Positions 31,625 to 46,107 of a stretch of 64,000 bases of DNA are shown piece after piece. How positions within the stretch are numbered: the stretch's first letter is position 1; every line of letters starts with the position of its first letter. Source of the DNA: Cenococcum geophilum (taxonomy: Eukaryota); contig CP158635.1 in the NCBI GenBank assembly GCA_050273025.1, positions 8,122,001 to 8,186,000 of the forward strand, in the 5' to 3' direction. Position numbers and translations under genes: made by a program. The notes below the pieces were generated by a model. That model was not told where the DNA came from and did not search any database. It saw only the letters and a program-made list of their open reading frames with translations.

Positions 31625-33435
31625 TAACCTTTACTAACTTTATCCTCTTTCTACCTTTTACTAACGTATGTGATGGGGTTATAAAGGTGACCCTAGTTAT
31701 AACCGATTTGAAAATCAAAATTTACCAAAATGCTGATTTGGTGGTAAATAATTAGTAAAAGCTATTATAAATTATCGCATCATCCTTCCTGCGAATCCTT
31801 TGGTAAGCAGCTTCTTCTACTGCCCTCTTATCGGTCTCCTAAAGTTGTATAATTAAAGCTGTAGCTGTAGCTGTAGCGGCGGCTGCGGAGGACTCTTCCG
31901 CCCGCTTTTGGAGCGGTTAATTGTTTCCATGCCTTAATATACGCTAGGTAGACTCTAGGATACGTTACGTGGGCCGCAAAATACGCACCTGTGCTTGCGC
32001 GTACGCTAGTTTAAAACTTCCTAGGCTTTTGCACAAGCTTCGGCGCCTTTATAAAGATTTTTTTTCGCTAGGCCGTTAAAGCTGCTTATAGACGATCTTT
32101 TGTATCTAGAGCACTTGGCCAGCAAGGCATGGCTTTAAGTTCTGCGCAAGGAAGTAAGGAGAAAAGTTGATGTGTTGATGTTCAAAGCGGCAGTATATTT
32201 AGCTACCCTAAATAAGAAGGCGGTAATGTAAATCGGTCATAACTAGGGTCACCTTCATAACCCCATCACATACGTTACTCCTTATCCTTACTAAATAAAT
32301 ATATACCTAATAACGGTGGTAACAAACTAAACGTTCTAGATATTTAATTCTGCCCTTATAAATATATTTAACAGTTATAAAGAAATAAAAAAGCCGGTAT
32401 ATAGTAGCTAATAGGGTATAAACTAACCTCTAAGACTTAAAAATGGGTAAGCAGTTTAAAGAGCGATTTTACTCTACTAAAGCTATGTTTAACAATAATC
32501 CGCCTAATTAAAAGCCACTAATTAAGAGCTTGCTAACTTAGTATAATTATTCCTCCTTTAGGCTTTTTATACGGTCCTAATACTCCCTACTAAGACCTAA
32601 AAGCAGCATCCCTATATATAAAGCGCTCTTAGCCTTCTAGCAGATATCCTAGTAGATCTTATAGCTTCGCACTAAGGCTGACTTTAATAGCTAGCGTAGT
32701 ATTACCGCCAGTAAAAGGAAGACTAGTAAAGACCGCGCTAAATAAACCGTTAGGTAGGATAATCGCGAGGTATCCTAGTAAGTATTATTTCTTATAGCTA
32801 CTCTAAAATAGAGTTTATTCTTCCTTACCAGGACAGCAGATTTAAACCTCTATTCTGTTAATAAAGCTAAAGATAGAAGCCTTACTAAGTTAGCTTCTGA
32901 TTACCTTAGTATACAAATTTATTTATTTAGGCAATATTAACTACCTATCCATCTTAATCCTTTTACCCTACCTCTTTATTATATTATCTAAAACGCCGTT
33001 CTAAACCCGCAATAGCCACGGCTGGCTTATTCTAAAGAATATTATAATATATCTAAACAATATAGGATGGGCAGAGCGCCAGAGGAAGACAAAGAGTAAT
33101 TCTTTAGGTAAGCTTGTTAATGCGTTTAGCCAGCCAAAACGTAGATTAATAGCGAACTTAGTAGGTAGATTAATCTGCCGTGTAAGCTCTTTAACCTCTA
33201 CTTTAGTAAAGCGGGTAAAGAACTTAAAATACTTATTATTTAGGCCTTCTTCCTCTTCTGGCGCCTATACGTTAATAAGCTTTTATATAGGACTAAGTCT
33301 CTTTAAGGGCTTCCATAGCCACACTAGTTGAGCTTTATTAGAGGCAGCTATAGCGGCAGCAAGCGCGTTAGCGTTATTCATCTGCAATAGCTAAGCTGCA
33401 GCAGCAAAGAACATGCGACGTTCGAGCCCATCCAT
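31625..33435 (-). pseudogene. Harbinger-type DDE transposase (DDE_Tnp_4-like) remnant
   Basis: ATG at 33435. RIPed motifs IF(S/G)FI(N/D)(R/G)xEVxIC(C/R)PG, xYKKxxxLGYLAIILP(N/D)G and YIxGDAA. The C-terminal tail is interrupted by the pogo derivative. End coordinate approximate. Confidence 0.75.
31664..32275 (-). mobile_element. Internally deleted pogo/Fot1-type Tc1/mariner element (612 bp)
   Basis: 46-bp TIRs ACGTATGTGATGGGGTTATGAAGGTGACCCTAGTTATGACCGATTT (2 G>A differences) and TA TSD. Minus strand keeps the start (MPxxPSA.. at ~32130) and the end of a transposase-like ORF. Confidence 0.88.
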
Positions 33436-34278
33436 AGCTCTACTAAGAAGGATATTAATATGGTGGTGAGGCGGCAGCAGTAGTAGTGGGTTCGGTAAAA
33501 TTAACCGTTTAATTCGCTTTTTATCGAAACCCCTTTTGAACAAAGCGTTGATTAATTACGCTTGACGTAAGAGTAAGCGCTAGTACGCACTAAATTATAG
33601 TTCTATCTTCCAACAGATACCTTTCAACGGTTCATCGAAACCCCCCTAATATGGAGCTCTCGTATACGCGCCAAAGTAACGACTTTTGTGATATGGCGAC
33701 TCCACACACCCCGATCGCGATACTGCTGTCGCATTTATAAGCCTTACCTAATGTTATTATTTTAACCTTTGTAATCGCAATGAGCTTATTTCTGGGGGGT
33801 GTCCGTACTCGGCATACTGATATATGGCGGGGAACAAAGTGGACGTCACAGTTGCTCTACGGCCACGAGCAACGACTCGTAAATCTGACTCGTATGAGGC
33901 CCGAGGTGTTTAAGAAGCTTCTCGATTGGGAGTCGCGATAGAGGTCTGGTGGCGGAGAGGGGCTCACTCGAATCGCTCACCGACGTCAATCACGGGTTGT
34001 GCGAAGCCAAATCTGGAGCCTCATATGGAGGCTTACCGAACGATCGACTCATTTACAGATTCAAATGAGCCAGTGCAGTAGCCGCCACCAATTACAAAAC
34101 GGGTGACACTAAAAGGCGCACGGATTGAATAAATATGATATGGAGCCAATTTGCAACCGAACGTACCCTTAGATTTTAAACGGAATCTAGATTTTCGCGA
34201 TTTTGGCTGATTTTGGTAGATTTTGGCTACAACGCGACCGACGACCTATATCCAACTTTTTATATAATATAGCTATGA

Positions 34279-35406
34279 AAAGGAACACCAAAATCGAGAT
34301 CCGACCCATACTGTCCTATGGGGGTTCCTTTCCGTCTTATTCTTGTCCGCACGGTCAAGCTAAGAGTGAGGATCTCGTCTGTTACTGATGCAGCGGCGTT
34401 ACGTCGTGGCTAGAGGGGTCTCTGAATACTTAACCCTTGACGCCGTCAGAACAGCAGAGTTTTCACGGGTCTTGGCGCAAGACCCAGTCAACAAGACGAC
34501 TCCATAAAATCGGCCTTTGCACCCCCACGCGGTGGAGCCCGGGAACCTAGTATGCAACTATTGGCGTTCTATCTAGATCGTGCCAATAGACTACTAGAGC
34601 GAACGCAGAGACGTGCGTACGGCTGTGCGGCGCCGGCGCTGCGACGTAGTAGTAGTGCGAAAAGTCTTCTGCTGGGAGGGTGAGCCCCAGCGAAAGACCT
34701 ATAAGTACGACTACTATGTCTCCACGTATACGTCTGGTACACCTGAAGTACGGCAACTAAACCGGCGTCCCCCCCTACCTCCTATACGAATACCTACACG
34801 ACCAAACGAGCCGCATGCAGCGACCGACGAGCCGTAAGCAGCGACTGAACACCTTATACGCCCTAGGAGGTCTGTGATGAGCCTCTCATTCCCCACTCTA
34901 CCCGACAGCCTGGACTTACCTACGCGGTATTCTGTCTCCCTCTACGTCTCGAAGCCCAGCTAGGTTGCAGGAGGTAGGTTGTAGGGGACCTAGGTTGGGG
35001 CCCTAGGACAAGACACCTAGTATATTCGTCCCGCTGTTCCTTTGGGGTGGAAATCATGCTGCAAGCAGGAGGACTATAGGCGTATGCACGCTAGGGTATT
35101 TAAATAGGGGCGGAAGGGCAGGATTACAAATTTTTTACGGCAATTATATCTAATAGGAAGCATGGTACGAAAGGCAGACAGGGCAAGATAGGCAATCAGG
35201 ACACCCCCGTACGGGGGTCTCAGAGCAGCGACCTAAAAGGTATTTTTCCTCCCGTTGATGTAGTACGGGCGTGCTACCTAGAGGGGTACACCCTGTATTA
35301 CCACTCACGTTCGCCTTGGAGGTTTTTTGTATCTATATCACGGTAGTAGTCTGCATGGACTCGCAAGAGGACCGCATCAGACGTAAAACAAGAATCAAAT
35401 TAAAAG
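34279..35406 (+). mobile_element. Candidate SINE-like / retroposed structured non-coding element (1128 bp)
   Basis: Exact 14-bp direct repeat TAATATAGCTATGA at 34265-78 and 35407-20. GC-balanced interior rich in hairpins. A 3' stem-loop is followed by the A-rich tail AAAACAAGAATCAAATTAAAAG. No long ORF. Confidence 0.6.
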
Positions 35407-35749
35407 TAATATAGCTATGATATAGTTATTAGATATAAAGATAGAGATAATAAAGAGCTTCTACCTATAGTATTTTTAAGATAATTAGACATTAAAAAAG
35501 GGACGAGTGTATTTTATAGTGCTCGGCTACCACCAAAGCTGGGACAATAAGCTGTGGAAAATTTACTTGGATAAGGAGCAGTATGCCCGTCACAATAATC
35601 CACCGAAGGTCTGATTTATGAGACAACAATTTCCCCGCGTGAACAATAATGATGACAGACGAAGCCCAGTTGGGATGACGAGCTCAACGCCACTCTAGCT
35701 ATCCCGAATCCCTCTGCTTCTTTTGGACTCCCTGGTCATATAACATACA

Positions 35750-37493
35750 ATGGAGCTGCTAGATCTCTGCTACGACGTCTTGATCCGCATTCTTCAAGAA
35801 TTGGAGCCGCAAGAATTGGCCCGCTGTTCGAGCTGTTGCCGAAGCTTCAACACTTTCATAAGGGGTAATCGGCGGCTGTTTAGAGTACTTTATCTGCAGA
35901 GATTCGTATGTTAAATGCATCCAGTACTCTGATGTCTCTGATGCTTGGTAGGACGACCCACGCCGGCATGCAGCGGATGCGGAGCCGCACTGGGAGAAGG
36001 AGCTCCCAATTCTTGTAAAATGCCAAAAAATCCTCCAATCTGATGATTTTGATGCCAAGGTAAGCCAACTCATAGAGCATTTGTCTTCCCAGTGGCTTAC
36101 AGTCACGTTAGATACGGCATTTCGACTTCCTGACCAGCGCCGTGGAAAGTCTTCTCAAAACTTCATCGGACAGTTCCCGACCCTCTCTAAACATCTCCTT
36201 CCTCTCAGACCTATTCAAATTACAAAAGAATGTCGACGCGTTCCTCTGCCGATCCTCCCTCTTCTCTCGTGCAGGGACCGACCGGCAAACTCCAGCCAGC
36301 ACAGAAGAGCAACGGCAACTAAGCGCAAAGCTCCACTGCCATTACGGCAACCCTGTCGATCCTGTCGGTCGACGGTCCTTCTCCACACATCCATACGCAC
36401 GCTCATACGTCTACGACCTACGCAACTATACGGATAAGACAGAATGGGGCCCCTTCCGCATGGATGGGTCGCTGTTCGTTGATTGGGAAATGGTCGAAAC
36501 CATCATGATCGTGCTGGCGTATAATATGCGGATCTTTAGCGAGCGCACTGGCGGCCGCTTCAAGCCTGTATGGGAGATACCGTTTGATGGTGTCGCGAAT
36601 AACAGCTTCAGTGCAACATATCCGCTGGCTCTGCCGGAGGAACCAGACATACCACTGCAGGCAAGGGATCCGTTTAATATTTCTGGCACGTGGATGCGGG
36701 TGAGTGATGATATCTAGTGTTGTCAGTTTCAAACTCCTCTGCTAATTCAACCAGGTTGTCTGCTTCCTAGGTATCTGAGACTTTACCCTTTGAGGTCAAT
36801 TCGCATTTAACGCTCTGCAGACTACAACGACCTCTACGCCTTTAACTTCGCCAATTCACCGGTCGCCAGCGACGAACCCAGGATCCCACTCTACACGGAA
36901 GAAGCAATCCGGCTCATCATCATGAAGCTTAAAGTGACCAAAATCGAGGCCCCGGGCCGCTTCGACAACCCCTCCTTACCAATCGTGCATTTCAGCGGCT
37001 CCTCGCGTTCGCTCGACGCGTTATGGGACCCTAACGCCAACTCTCGTATCAAGGGTCCGTTCCCCCCTCCCCCATTCATCCACCCGACCAAGCTATGCTA
37101 ACTAATATTACACAGGCCGTGTCAGGCTGACGTCAGAAGGCGAAGTACGCTGGACTACCGTTTCAATATTCTACGGGTACGATGCTTCACCCCCCTTTAC
37201 CCCTCCTGCCAACAACGCGAACCAAACCTTTCTTTGAACAGCAATCAGCTGACTCCGCTTATAGTGGTGAAGAACGGTGGCGCAGCGAAGGCGTGCAAGT
37301 CGGCGGGATCCGCTCCAAGCGCGGCGTCGTTGGGACGTGGTTTGACAAGGACTATGACGTACATGGCCCGGTCGGCCCAACCGCGTTCTGGAAGCTGAGC
37401 GACCGGACTAAGAAGGTCGGCTCTGTAGACTCGGATTCAGGGTCAGAGCTCGAAGTTGAGGCGGAATCGGATTCAGAGTCAGATTCATCATGA
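35750..37493 (+). CDS. Fungal F-box domain protein, 7 exons (35750-35905, 35952-36059, 36112-36699, 36755-36770, 36821-37054, 37116-37176, 37265-37493)
   Basis: N-terminal F-box [37 protein letters not shown] introns give a continuous frame through [40 protein letters not shown] and [10 protein letters not shown], followed by an acidic tail. Confidence 0.9.
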
Positions 37494-37786
37494 TGTACAC
37501 ACGCGCACGAGCTATGACGAAATTTCCAGGCTAACTAGATAGGGGTGCAGGGGAGGATGCGATGCTGATATATAATATCTGCTATCAAAGTTTTCCATGA
37601 CGGCGTTCTTTAGGAAAAGGGGAGTTCAGGTGTTTCTATATCTATATCTAGCCACCCGCAACCACAAATATAGTCCCGCGACCCTTCTCCCAACCCGAGC
37701 CCCCCGGTCGCCTCGCCCCCCTTTGACCGCTTCGCGCCGGTTTTGACAACCACATCGCCCCCGCCCACCCCTAACCGCCCACCTCC

Positions 37787-40384: not shown

Positions 40385-43300
40385 GTGTATGTATATATAT
40401 ATATTCTATTATGGCCATGCACCATCTAGGGTATAGGCCGTTACAGAGCGCTAACTAAATACTTCCTGCTATTAATATGCTTGCTCTAGTTTAGAAGCCA
40501 ACTATAAGAACTATATATCTATTACCTAACACTATGCTTAACTAAGGAAAAAATAAAGGAAAGTAATATGTTACTATTAAAGAAAGTTAAAGTTTAGAGG
40601 CGAGCCTAAGTAAGTAGTTTTTAATGCCTTGTGTCTATAGGGCTATTCTAGCATTATACGCTTCTTAATTAGCAACGTACTAGTAGAGGCACGTGTAGAG
40701 GAGGCTCGCGGTGTATTCGGTTAGATAATTAAAGGAGGAATTCTTAAGAGTCTTTACTTATTAATATCAGCTTTTATACTCTCTATATCTTATATACTTA
40801 GGTATAAATATCCAGTCTCCTTTATAAATTTAATTATAGCTTTAACTACGCTAATGTCTGGCTTCTAGCGCTTAATTAGGCCGTTAATATTCCTACCTCC
40901 TTCTTATCTGCGTAAGTAGCCTCCTAATATATATAATAGATCCCTAAATTAATCTCTATATTACTCTCTTAGTTTAATCCTTTACTACGCCCACCTCCTA
41001 TAAGAGAAGAGGAAGTGCTATATTAACTTTATAAGCTTATAGTTACATAACGCCATCTCTAATGCATTAATTTTGTGGAGATATTCCTTTAGAAATAACT
41101 TACTGGTCCGTAGCTATATAAGGATAATAGCTTCTAAGCTAATTAGCTGCTAGTATAATCCTACAGCCTTTCTAAGGTAGAGTGCTGCGTTAATCTTCCT
41201 TATAAACTTACCTGTATTAGATCTTCCTAATAAAAGCAGTTCTGTTATTATTTTAGCTCTTTTTAAGGCTTGCGTCACAAGGTACTATAGGAGGCCGTCT
41301 TTCTATAGTGGCTCCTCGCTCTCTAGTCTTATTGCTGCTTTAATAAGCTTATTGGCCTTTTTATTTTTTATAAATCCTAAGTAGCCTAGAATCTAGTATA
41401 GCGTAATATTGTTTAGCTAAAGCTTTTTTAAAATCTTTGTGACTATTTCCTAGTAGGCTCTAGCCCTCTAGCTCTATACTAATAGTAACGCTAATTATAA
41501 GTTAGAGAATATTCTTATACTAGATATAGGTATTAGAAAACCTACTTAGTTAACAGCCGTGTATATAGGGTCCTATGGCCAGTTAGCTGCCTTGCTAATT
41601 GCTAAAAGCTCTATAAGGTAGGCGTCGGCCTAATTAGAGCTCACTACCGTTTTTAAAAGTGTTGCTTTAGATAGCGTAGCATATACACTAACTCCTGCCC
41701 TACTATTGCGCACCGATGTATTAATGTATATATTAACCTACCCTAGCTTATAGTCTTTAATAATAGCTTGAGTATAATCTTCGTCCTTATATATTACTAT
41801 ATTAGGCTTAGCTATTTACGGCGGGCATGTATATGGTTTAACCTTTAGCACCCTATTTACCTAGACATCCTTATATATCTTTACTGTCCTCTAAAGCGGC
41901 AATTGGTGCCGTCTATAGAGCCTCTGTCTTTAAATCATCTAATAAGGATATAATTTGCCTAGTTTATAGATTAATACCTAAAACGCAATAGCCTGGTTAC
42001 GCAGCCTTTACTTAAGAGGGAGTAAGCCGGCTTCTACTTTTGCTATTAGTAGGGCAATAAAGCGGAACCCCCTAATAATAGCTTATGCCGTAATCCTCTG
42101 CGCCTACTAAAGGAGCTATATTAACTCTTATATTATAAGTAGGTACTATATTAGTAACACGTAGTCTATTACTAGTAGGACTAAGCTCTTAGCTAGCTGC
42201 TTAACGCTCTTAAACTATAGTCCCTTTAATCTGCGTAACGCTAGCGCTACCTTAGTGGCTTTACCTACCTTATCTATTAGGTACGCCTTAAACCGTAGCT
42301 CCTTATTAAGAATTACCCTAAGGATTTTAACTTCCTAAGTTAGGGGGATCCCTTTTCCTTTAAATTGGAGCGGCGTGGTAGTATCCCTACCTACTTCTTT
42401 ATATCTAGTAAGGTAGATAAATAACGTTTTCTTCGCTTTAAATTGGGCTCTACTAGTCCTCTCCTATTTCTCAAGCATTGGTATAATCTTACCCTAGATA
42501 ATCTGCGTATTTTCCTCCGCCGTAGGGCCTATAACCTATACTGAGTAGTCGTTAATAAAGGCTATAGAGCTGCTATTTCTAGGTGCGCTTTATATAAGAT
42601 CCGCATTAAAGAATAGAAAGAGTATTAGGGCTAGTGCTAATCCCTATAGGAGACCCGCCTGCGGGAGCGCCTATACCTCTAATATATATCCGTTAACTAG
42701 GATATAGGCTTAATAGTTTATATAAAAGTCCTACACCTATTATATAATCGTCTAAGGTATCTATCGCTACTATAATCTCCTAATTTCCGGCTCTATAGCC
42801 ATATTATTATACGCACCCTTAATATTAAATAATACTAAAGATAGCGTCTTCTTTCCTCTTTATGCTCTAAATACGTCCTTATAGAGATATAATAGCGTAT
42901 ATATTATTAACCTTTACTTTCTAGCTCTAAAGTGCGTCTTAGGTAGTAGGCTATATTCCTCTACTAGGTATGCTATCCTCTCCGCCACTAGCGATTTAAG
43001 TGCTTTTCCTAGTATTGGGAGAAAAGAGATCGGCCTATAGTTATTTGCTACTATATAGTCCCCCCGCTTTAGCTTCTATAGCGGTATAATCTTTACTACC
43101 TTTTATTCCTAGGGTACCTTTCCTATCTTAAGTAATTTGGTAAAGAGAGTGGTAATTTTACCACTTAGTATGGGCCACAGCTCTTGCCACACCCTGGCTA
43201 GTAGGCCGTCCCTTTTAGGAGCCTTATTTAGGCTAGCCCTAAACACAGCTACCTTGACCTCATGTTTGGTGATAGGCTCCTACGGCAATTAGTTGTAGCT

Positions 43301-46107
43301 AGTTATAGCTTCCTCCTCTTATTTACACGGCGGTAGGACCGGAAAGAATACCTAGAGTAGTTCTCTTGCAATATTATAGTTCTCTGTAATAACTTCTCCC
43401 TATCCTCCATCCTTCTTAATTAGTAGTATTCTAGCGAACGCGGATATAGCCTACAGATTGAGGTATTTCGACGCTTTTTATATATTATTACTATTACTAA
43501 GGAATTCGTCCTAATAGAGCTTCCTATATCGCTGAATAGTCCTATAGAAGAGCTTCTTTACTCTTACTATAATATTACGTAGCTTAGGGTCATCCCTTCC
43601 TTGCCTCCGCATCGCGCTATTTCTGTTTCTTTAGTATATATATAACTTCCTTAGCGTTATAAGGTCTTCGTTCCACCATCTTTTTATATACAGTGATAGT
43701 CTAGCCCATTAGCAGTGTGCTTTAAGGGCTTTATTAACCTACCTATTAAGGTAGTTAACCATTTTGTCTATATCTTCTATAGGGAATCCTATCTCTTTCT
43801 ATTACTCTATATCTTCTTATATCTTATCCTAATTTGCATTTTTAATAAGTAGCCTCTCCTAGCTCTCCTGCGTATCTATATTAACCTAAAAGCTAGTATA
43901 GATAGCTCTATAGTCTAATCTGTACTTATACTTCTAAATAGCGCACTTTACTAGTTTACTCGCTAGGCCCAGGGTTGCAAGTATAAGGTTAATTATTAAT
44001 ATTCGCCCTATATTGCTTTTAAACGTAGGTATTCTTACTAAAAGTAGGCTTTAGAGTAACCGGTCCGCCATAAAGTTAATAATTGGCGCGCTTTCTTCCT
44101 GCGTTAATGTGGTACTAATATAACTTCCTCCCCATAGCGGATTATGCCAATTAAAGTCACCTGCAATTACTACCTTAGTGTGTAGGTCGCGTAATAGTTC
44201 ACCTTAGATTAGCCTATTAATTATCTCCAGTTTACTAGAGAGCTCCTCTAGGTTCTCTTCCTTAGTTCTCCTTAAATATCTATCTAGAATATATACTAAT
44301 ATAATTATAAGTCTCCTTTAGCTAACGTGCGCTACTACCGCCGTAATATCTGCTAAATCTACCTACAGCTATATAGCTGCCAGCTCTCTAGATACCCAGA
44401 TATATAACCTAACTAGGGAATACTACTACTGCCTGCCCATTAGGACGAACCTTATCCACTAGGGATTTAAGCCAGCTAGCACCACTTCCCCATCTAAGAG
44501 AAAGCAGTAAGGCTCCTGGCCTAAAATAAAGTAGAAGTCTGCTAGCGCTTTATTATTATATAGCGCATACTACGCCTCCCTATACTTCTTTATATTCGCC
44601 TAGAGGATCTAAAGTTCTCTATTTATAGCGCTATTATATAAGAATCCTATCTATCTCTTTTCTGTATACTAGGTATTTACGGTATAAGGCTTAGTAAGGA
44701 CCCTAGCAGTTTACATAGTATAGATTTACCATCTTATACTAGAGATAGCCTTCCCGCCTATATATTTTGCATATATTAGGTCGCGTACAGTCTCTAGCCC
44801 TATATTTAAACCTTTTGTATTTATAGTATATTATAGGGGTATATCGCTCCTTAAATGGTAATATAATAATCGCGCCTCCCCTAAATAATACGTTGTTTAA
44901 CGTAAGCAGCTTCTCTACATCCTCCTTTATTGCCACTTTAATAATCACTAACGCGTGCTAGCCGCGCGGCCTTAGTTATCCTAGCTATCTCATTATATAT
45001 ACCTTTACCCTATTCTCTACCCTAAAGCACTCTATAGCTAACTTACTTACTTTTCTACTATTAATATCTATCGCTAAAGGTACTTTAACCCAGTCCGCCT
45101 TAACCATATACCACTTAGGTCTAATAAGCCTCGCCCTAGGGATATGCGGTTTAAGCCATTAAGCAATTATCTACCTAAACACAGCTTCTTTATCTTTTTC
45201 CACTAAAAATCTAATAATGCTCGCGCTGTCGCTTATTCGCTATACGCGGAAGTCCTTAAGTATAGCTCCTATAAGCCCCTTAACATCCTTTATACCTTAC
45301 GCAATGGTTTACTTTACTACTTTAGTAGTAGCTACCCTCTCTATTACCTCTAAACCTGCTCGGCTAACGTCTATTACTAGCTGCTAATTGGGTTCCTTGG
45401 GGTTCCTAGCGCTTATTATTTGTGGTAAGGTTATCTCTAACCCTGCCGTGCCTTTACTAGCCGCTACCGATGCCTATAATTGTGTTAGAGCTAAGGGAGT
45501 GTTTAGTTACGCTTATAAGGACCAAATAGCCTTTTAGAGTTTAGCGTTTTACTTTTTAAGGCTTTGCTATTTCAATTTAATATCTACAAAGTTATTTCTA
45601 ATGCTCTTAATAATACTATTCTGGTTTATAATAATGTTGCTCTACTATACTATAGTTTCTTTAAGGCTTTCAATAAGTTGATAAAATTCATTATAATTAA
45701 TACCTCCTCCTTTACGTTCGGGTAAGGTAGAGACTCTTACTATAGGGAATAGAGGCAGTATATGCTATGTAGCTTGTAGTCCGGTTTATAGTGCGGTTGT
45801 CTACTGTTCAAACTATACTAATATTTAGGCTCGTGTCCTCAGCGACTACTAGGCCTCTTACACCTTCGCGCTCGGTTTCTTTATACGTCTTAGTAGAGCT
45901 GCTAGCGGGTCCAGAGGCAGTGTTGCTGATACGCGTTCAGGGGTCAAAGCAGCCATCGGGGCTCCGGGGCTTCGTTCGGTGGGCCGCAGGGGCCGCCTTG
46001 TAGCGGGAACTAGCTAAACAAAAGACTAGGATTTAATTAAAAGAATGTCCGAGATAAATATCCTCCTCTTTCAAAAGTTCTATCCGGGGTCAGTAATACA
46101 AGGGGGT
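40385..46107 (-). mobile_element. Near full-length RIPed Tad1-like LINE (ORF1 Zn-knuckle; ORF2 APE-RT-RNase H)
   Basis: Minus strand: CCHC knuckle remnants ~44650-44830, APE motif AGDFNxHxPLWGG ~44130-44170, RT GLPxG..L.LILF and AF(I/V)(N/D)DY ~42545-42660, RNase H ~41350-41740. Tail AATAGAATA(T/C)ATA..CATAC at ~40385-40410. Probable TSD CC(G/A)ACCCGGATA at 40372 and 46108. Ends approximate. Confidence 0.88.

Follow-up and report, generated by a model that had tools for sequence, protein, structure and literature searches.

A LINE-mobilised retroposon of Cenococcum geophilum that likely captured the head of a WEIRD-like RNA and thereby disabled its own HDV-like ribozyme

We analysed a 64,000-nt stretch of Cenococcum geophilum DNA (the window), and judging from its sequence one insertion in it is a composite of two sources: positions 34279-34496 come from a non-coding RNA that we call B, and positions 34497-35406 from a SINE-like family that we call S. 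The reading we prefer, and consider quite likely, is that a ribozyme-headed retroposon mobilised by LINEs captured the head of B, and that the capture disabled the ribozyme that now lies inside the element. Such a head swap would be a new twist on known chimeric retroposons. It would also be a route to refounding a SINE family, with a captured passenger-RNA head disabling the SINE's own ribozyme at the join. Table 1 gives the features.

Table 1. Features of the composite element and its flanks, in window positions.
Positions	Strand	Feature	Basis or remark
34265..34278	+	Target-site duplication (TSD), 5' copy	Exact repeat; last 2 nt possibly element-derived microhomology
34279..34378	+	B-derived head, pseudoknot with HDV-like helix order; P1 34279-86/34324-31, P2 34295-302/34370-77	
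within 34279..34378	+	Hairpins of the B head: 34305-10/34317-22 and P4-like 34335-65	
34379..34496	+	Rest of B-derived head: long stem 34379-34454, hairpin 34467-34485, linker	Identity to B starts
34495..34504	+	Join; replaces the SINE's first three G's	10-mer also inside B near position 730; 5-nt microhomology overlap with SINE start
34497..34610	+	HDV-like ribozyme fold of headless SINE family S, probably inactive; two P1 mismatches including +1; catalytic-C equivalent 34600	Relaxed descriptor match
34611..35340	+	Non-coding family S body; conserved stems 34664-34698 and 35203-35218; 25-nt motif 35156-35180 common with LINE 3' UTR	
35341..35406	+	LINE-type 3' stem-loop (35349-35382) and A-rich tail	Tail likeness to LINE 3' ends; covariation across SINEs and LINEs
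35407..35420	+	TSD, 3' copy	Exact repeat

Boundaries, copies and LINE-type mobilisation

The element is flanked by an exact 14-bp direct repeat, as the initial annotation had reported, and the repeat encloses 1128 bp. Its final GA may equally be the 5' end of the element, which puts the true duplication at 12-14 bp. Every stem listed in that annotation is present, and we agree that there is no credible ORF, as ATG-initiated frames of more than 50 aa are absent and stop-to-stop frames do not exceed 80 aa. The pseudoknot helix 34295-34302/34370-34377, the HDV-like fold and the composite origin had been overlooked.

The segment had also been called hairpin-dense, but the folding statistics do not bear this out. 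For its first 996 nt z is -0.65 and 5 of 20 shuffles fold equally well, and z reaches -2 or lower in only two of 18 windows of 120 nt with starts from 34261 to 35281 (34621-34740 and 35221-35340). Across the element, folding is no better than in shuffled controls, an outcome that the annotation had itself named as counting against its reading. Despite the lack of a whole-element excess, compensatory changes among copies back several single stems; here we discounted apparent compensation at sites in the context of repeat-induced point mutation (RIP). The genome looks like that of a filamentous ascomycete affected by RIP, to judge from its TAG/TAA-riddled LINE copies, its TpA-rich repeats and the spliced F-box gene described below.

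A whole-element search of the C. geophilum genome returned 52 matches from the 40 scored of 529 candidates. Among the full-length head-bearing copies with both ends available (46, from this genome and metagenome loci), 43 have a TSD of 12-21 bp with a mode of 14. We came across no allele with an empty site. The check on copy number and TSD variation proposed earlier thus gave a multi-copy, dispersed family with duplications of variable length. The tail had been described as A-rich, which is correct for the window copy, but most other copies end in (TAA)n.

The proposed comparison with resident LINEs was also positive. The last 57-92 nt of the family tails are 73-78% identical to the 3' ends of four LINE loci (L072, L070, L075 and L066), and the terminal stem covaries in step between SINEs and LINEs. 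This was the best likeness among 20 LINE loci, out of 150 scored EN matches, and a near-identical tail was absent from these loci. Domain searches of three sampled LINE loci confirmed EN and RT, although one of the three showed just RT in the frame tested. Because the TSDs are 12-21 bp long and the tail resembles that of resident LINEs, LINE-driven insertion holds; the earlier proposal of target-primed insertion is supported by the multi-copy state, the variable TSDs and the LINE-like 3' stem-loop and tail.

With dispersed copies, a LINE-like 3' end carrying a simple-repeat tail and no coding capacity, the element has the properties of a SINE-like, LINE-mobilised retroposon. It does not have the Pol III head of a classical SINE, derived from tRNA, 5S or 7SL. 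We found no tRNA within the 64-kb window, so there is no tRNA head, and Rfam gave only sub-threshold chance matches, none near the gathering score, in the region and 18 related loci. The description as a long SINE-like element without a tRNA head was therefore apt. A truncated LINE reduced to its 3' UTR would not account for the element either, as likeness to LINE 3' UTRs is limited to the ~90-nt tail and the 25-nt motif.

A minus-strand LINE copy of 5.6 kb, 83% identical to locus L068, lies in the window at 40386-45967. The youngest LINE family that we sampled (L061-L065, L067, L079 and L080), which encodes RNase H and ends in a poly(A)-type tail, is the partner in none of the 66 B junctions described below.

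The HDV-like fold of family S and the join

Using the sequence at window position ~34497 as a query gave 269 candidates. We examined 33 headless loci and found a TSD at 20; in 14 of the 20 the element begins directly with GGG. The start of S folds as an HDV-like double pseudoknot, with a P1 of 7 bp, a P2 of 6 bp, a P3 of 3 bp, a 7-nt loop, a 2-bp P1.1, a P4 and a C before P2', so P1, P1.1, P2, P3, P4, the L3 motif and the J4/2 C of HDV-like ribozymes are all found at the 5' end of the family. Our descriptor (nested double pseudoknot, L3 motif, J4/2 C) matched strictly in 13 of 36 headless copies, a count that RIP-type mutation depresses even in this group, and in none of 56 head-bearing ones; allowing one P1 mismatch raised the headless count to 17 of 36. 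There were no matches in 5.12 Mb of shuffled window or in 200 shuffled 5' ends. In 17 hand-picked plus-strand S copies, P3 and P1.1 are invariant and there are 15 two-sided changes, all in P4 (0/500 shuffles), although kinship among copies can inflate this covariation and some of the changes are at RIP-type sites. S copies thus appear to start at a predicted HDV-like cut site, where the fold and the 5' boundary are observed and cleavage is presumed from them.

In the window copy the same fold is internal, and two P1 mismatches, one of them a C at +1, take the place of an intact P1 with a paired purine. The first three bases are GGG in 28 of 36 headless copies and CGA, TGA, CAA or TAA (CGA or its RIP form) in 54 of 56 head-bearing copies. 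In R2 and other HDV-like ribozymes, P1 mismatches go with loss of cleavage, as far as the available text of PMC3774820 goes. Given the split in strict matches and the replacement of the first three bases by the join, the inner ribozyme is probably disabled in head-bearing copies, and a cutter disabled by the join itself would let the head persist. The headless and head-bearing ribozymes make a natural comparison pair.

The occurrence of the join 10-mer within B, together with the five-base overlap, suggests a microhomology switch followed by a deletion. We saw no intermediate with a longer B part ahead of S among the copies.

RNA B, its junctions and its head

Nucleotides 1-216 of the element are 87-91% identical to the starts of B copies. 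B is non-coding, 1.07-1.14 kb long, and has one fixed 3' end point. The insertion had been suggested to be a retrocopy of an unknown structured RNA, and this is right for the initial ~218 nt, derived from WEIRD-like RNA B, but not for the remainder. Of the 66 B 3' ends that we collected (36 from the C. geophilum genome and 30 from metagenomes), our script assigned 51 to LINE loci; two of these in fact join internal B, and 49 join LINEs of five families at scattered positions. The script left the other 15 without a partner, and inspection by eye showed SINE sequence at four of them. Three junction sites recur twice. After B's terminal G, the first base past the join is C in 39 of the 66 (background 22%, p 1.5e-10), and a candidate explanation for this bias is that a terminal C of B would pair with the end of the cDNA. 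TSDs flank the B chimeras L094 and L159, and none was found for L202. The B-derived head is common to the B chimeras and to SINE types A and C.

This arrangement is known from Magnaporthe grisea, where MINE is described as a ~1.1-kb non-coding RNA, WEIRD, with a fixed 3' end, joined to variably shortened LINEs or SINEs. MINE and WEIRD-Mg-SINE have 10-20-bp TSDs and are transcribed, and the available part of the account gives no solo source gene (PMC2104539). Copies of B resemble MINE in each respect, being full-length non-coding RNAs of ~1.1 kb with a fixed 3' end, variably truncated LINEs and TSDs. A base bias at the junction is also common to both, GCC in MINE and a first C after the terminal G here. 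The window element does not carry a full-length passenger RNA, as it retains ~216 of ~1070 nt. There are further differences from the Magnaporthe elements as described there: the WEIRD-SINE fusion is single-copy with full-length WEIRD, whereas ~218 nt of B head a dispersed family; and B joins five LINE families. A ribozyme goes unmentioned in the MINE account as available, and we liken B to WEIRD by architecture alone. The nature of WEIRD-like RNAs was left open in that text (PMC2104539), and B offers a handle on it. In C. geophilum such RNAs look like a set of kindred non-coding RNAs whose structured heads are interchangeable and whose 3' end is fixed.

We rejected several identities for B and its joins. 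B as an rDNA spacer had no match to one 10-kb rDNA unit. As a tandem or circular unit it gave no tail-to-head matches in C. geophilum DNA, a result that leaves room for circles of RNA, and a viral origin had no matches in viral contigs. Trans-splicing or group I reverse splicing was set aside because, by eye, there is no AG/U enrichment upstream of the B-LINE junctions.

In six loci (L152, L127, L167, L184, L120 and L141) complete B 3' ends are joined to SINE copies or internal B, giving multi-part structures like the tripartite Magnaporthe element. Metagenome contig L154 (1312 nt) has a B-type head behind ~370 nt of non-RIP-looking sequence, with a ~30-nt apparent insertion in the post-P1 linker. 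The upstream sequence has no match in the C. geophilum genome, and the contig could lie near the source gene of B or be a truncated insertion. Another metagenome contig, L168 (1126 nt), is almost exactly one head-bearing element and transcript-like, with a 145-codon ATG frame at 291.

The junctions bear on whether the element could be an internally deleted LINE, a 5' UTR fused to a 3' UTR as in R2 SIDEs or NARTc. At one locus (L069) a LINE endonuclease does follow the head, and the element's tail is similar to LINE 3' ends. However, this locus is a B-LINE chimera, and LINEs of five families, truncated at many different points, carry the same head in front. In the other 19 LINE loci the head is absent, and none of them has a strict ribozyme match. 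We find a deleted LINE very unlikely as the origin of the element; it is largely refuted for the head and could still hold for family S if a LINE outside our sample has the S ribozyme at its 5' end.

The captured head has the helix order P1-P2-P3-P1'-P4-P2', as in HDV, a topology seen in 0 of 2000 shuffles. It does not have the HDV core: between 34279 and 34378 the L3 motif, the GG that would form P1.1 after P1 and the C before P2' are all missing, a 6-bp hairpin is in place of the 3-bp P3, and the HDV descriptor found no match. Across 133 heads P2 is almost invariant, while in P1 one G-C pair is replaced by A-U in 21 copies and one pair is broken in 12; the only real compensatory change in the head is in P1. 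A mutual-information scan was uninformative about pairing, as its top pairs trace subfamily structure. In a related passenger RNA, G, which is 65-80% identical over B 556-868, a canonical HDV-like fold takes the head position (a match in 5 of 8 loci), so B bears a different head in the same place. An internal region of 250-300 nt is common to B and G loci L264-L266 and L268-L270, which end in ...CCTG where B ends in ...CTGG. These likenesses suggest one superfamily with exchangeable heads.

Conceivably the B head could cleave itself, as a ribozyme of a type not yet described that combines HDV-like topology with a different catalytic core; such a ribozyme would have replaced the canonical ribozyme in one WEIRD-like lineage and then displaced the SINE's own by head capture. 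The helix order and the canonical fold at the same position in G fit this idea. So does the 9-bp P1, which starts at a G directly past the TSD in many copies, and so do two RNA-library contigs that span the 5' junction, which means that read-through occurs. However, the core elements listed above are missing, Rfam is silent, and the 5' ends of head-bearing copies are ragged: G is first in 19 of 43, and the exact four-letter P1 start is found in 3 of 43, as against an exact start in 14 of 20 in family S. A capped transcript would likewise yield a 5' G and an A-run. We regard a new ribozyme here as unlikely. Candidate roles for the head are those of a promoter, of a protective fold and of a ribozyme not known so far, and an internal promoter with a protective pseudoknot is favoured over self-cleavage.

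Proposed origin, related systems and expression

In the origin that we prefer, the element is a non-autonomous retroposon that would be copied by the endonuclease and reverse transcriptase of resident LINEs recognising the 3' stem-loop and (TAA)n, as the TSDs and the tail likeness suggest. An older SINE-like S would have started at the HDV-like cut site, with the ribozyme freeing S from read-through transcripts. During reverse transcription the enzyme may then have switched from S RNA to the WEIRD-like hitch-hiker RNA B through the 5-nt microhomology, and most of the B part would have been deleted to leave ~218 nt. The join presumably broke P1 of the S ribozyme, so that the new head stays uncut, and the composite would then have spread as its own family, dispersed copies with the fixed join being what we observe. 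The head most likely supplies a transcription start, 5' protection or both.

Headless S resembles the R2 and R2/R1 SIDEs (PMC3414825) and NARTc (PMC3185411), as far as these are described in the available texts: it begins exactly at a ribozyme fold, ends like a LINE, is flanked by TSDs and lacks an ORF. It differs from SIDEs and NARTc in its fungal host and in that no LINE with the S 5' end was found among 20 loci; the window copy differs further in that its ribozyme is internal, broken in P1 and behind a second head (PMC3414825, PMC3185411). Fungal variants of the HDV ribozyme with a G-C pair at the cleavage site have been shown to cleave, and family S shares with them the HDV-class fold and this G-C pair. 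The available part of that text does not link them to retroposons, and the B head falls outside the three deviations that it lists (PMC5640933). The parts of our element therefore have precedent, in so far as these sources go, in MINE chimeras, ribozyme-headed non-autonomous elements (PMC3414825, PMC3185411, PMC6765202) and fungal HDV ribozymes. A literature search, with most subscription journals outside its scope, turned up neither a ribozyme-headed SINE from a fungus nor a case of head capture in which a ribozyme is disabled.

RNA libraries contain the family in abundance, as 61-73% of the element's words are present in each of 20 runs from 17 studies, and 14 of these runs are recorded as RNA. 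In three runs available as contigs only, one recorded as RNA and two presumed to be, contigs with 0-1 differences to the window copy have depths of 127, 336 and 12, against 306, 385 and 10 for a spliced F-box mRNA, contig depth being a poor measure of expression and blind to starts. Depth over 33000-33450 is near zero in these runs. In stranded raw reads from one run of a diverged strain, reads over the body have the orientation of the F-box gene and there is almost no coverage of the head, so the conservation of the head could reflect a recent origin.

Abundance in RNA would also suit a retrocopy of a cellular non-coding RNA or of a circular, viroid-like replicon, as would the lack of an identified solo source gene for B and the head in L154 behind sequence absent from the C. 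geophilum genome. Against this, Rfam and the rDNA unit were negative, and the composite amplifies as a unit with a fixed LINE-type tail. The viroid-like or circular origin raised in the initial annotation found no backing in genomic tail-to-head junctions of B or in viral contigs, and the element lacks the long terminal repeat and Rfam hammerhead of a retrozyme. We consider this origin very unlikely.

Another repeated, transcribed sequence adjoins the element upstream at 33453-34170, with loose ends at 34169 marking the boundary; its frame at 33741-33938 has no match in Pfam. The F-box gene, which is spliced and expressed, lies on the plus strand at 35609-37500 and begins ~200 bp downstream of the insertion. 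It has a micro-exon of ~12-16 nt near 36755-36770, seen in ~100 reads.
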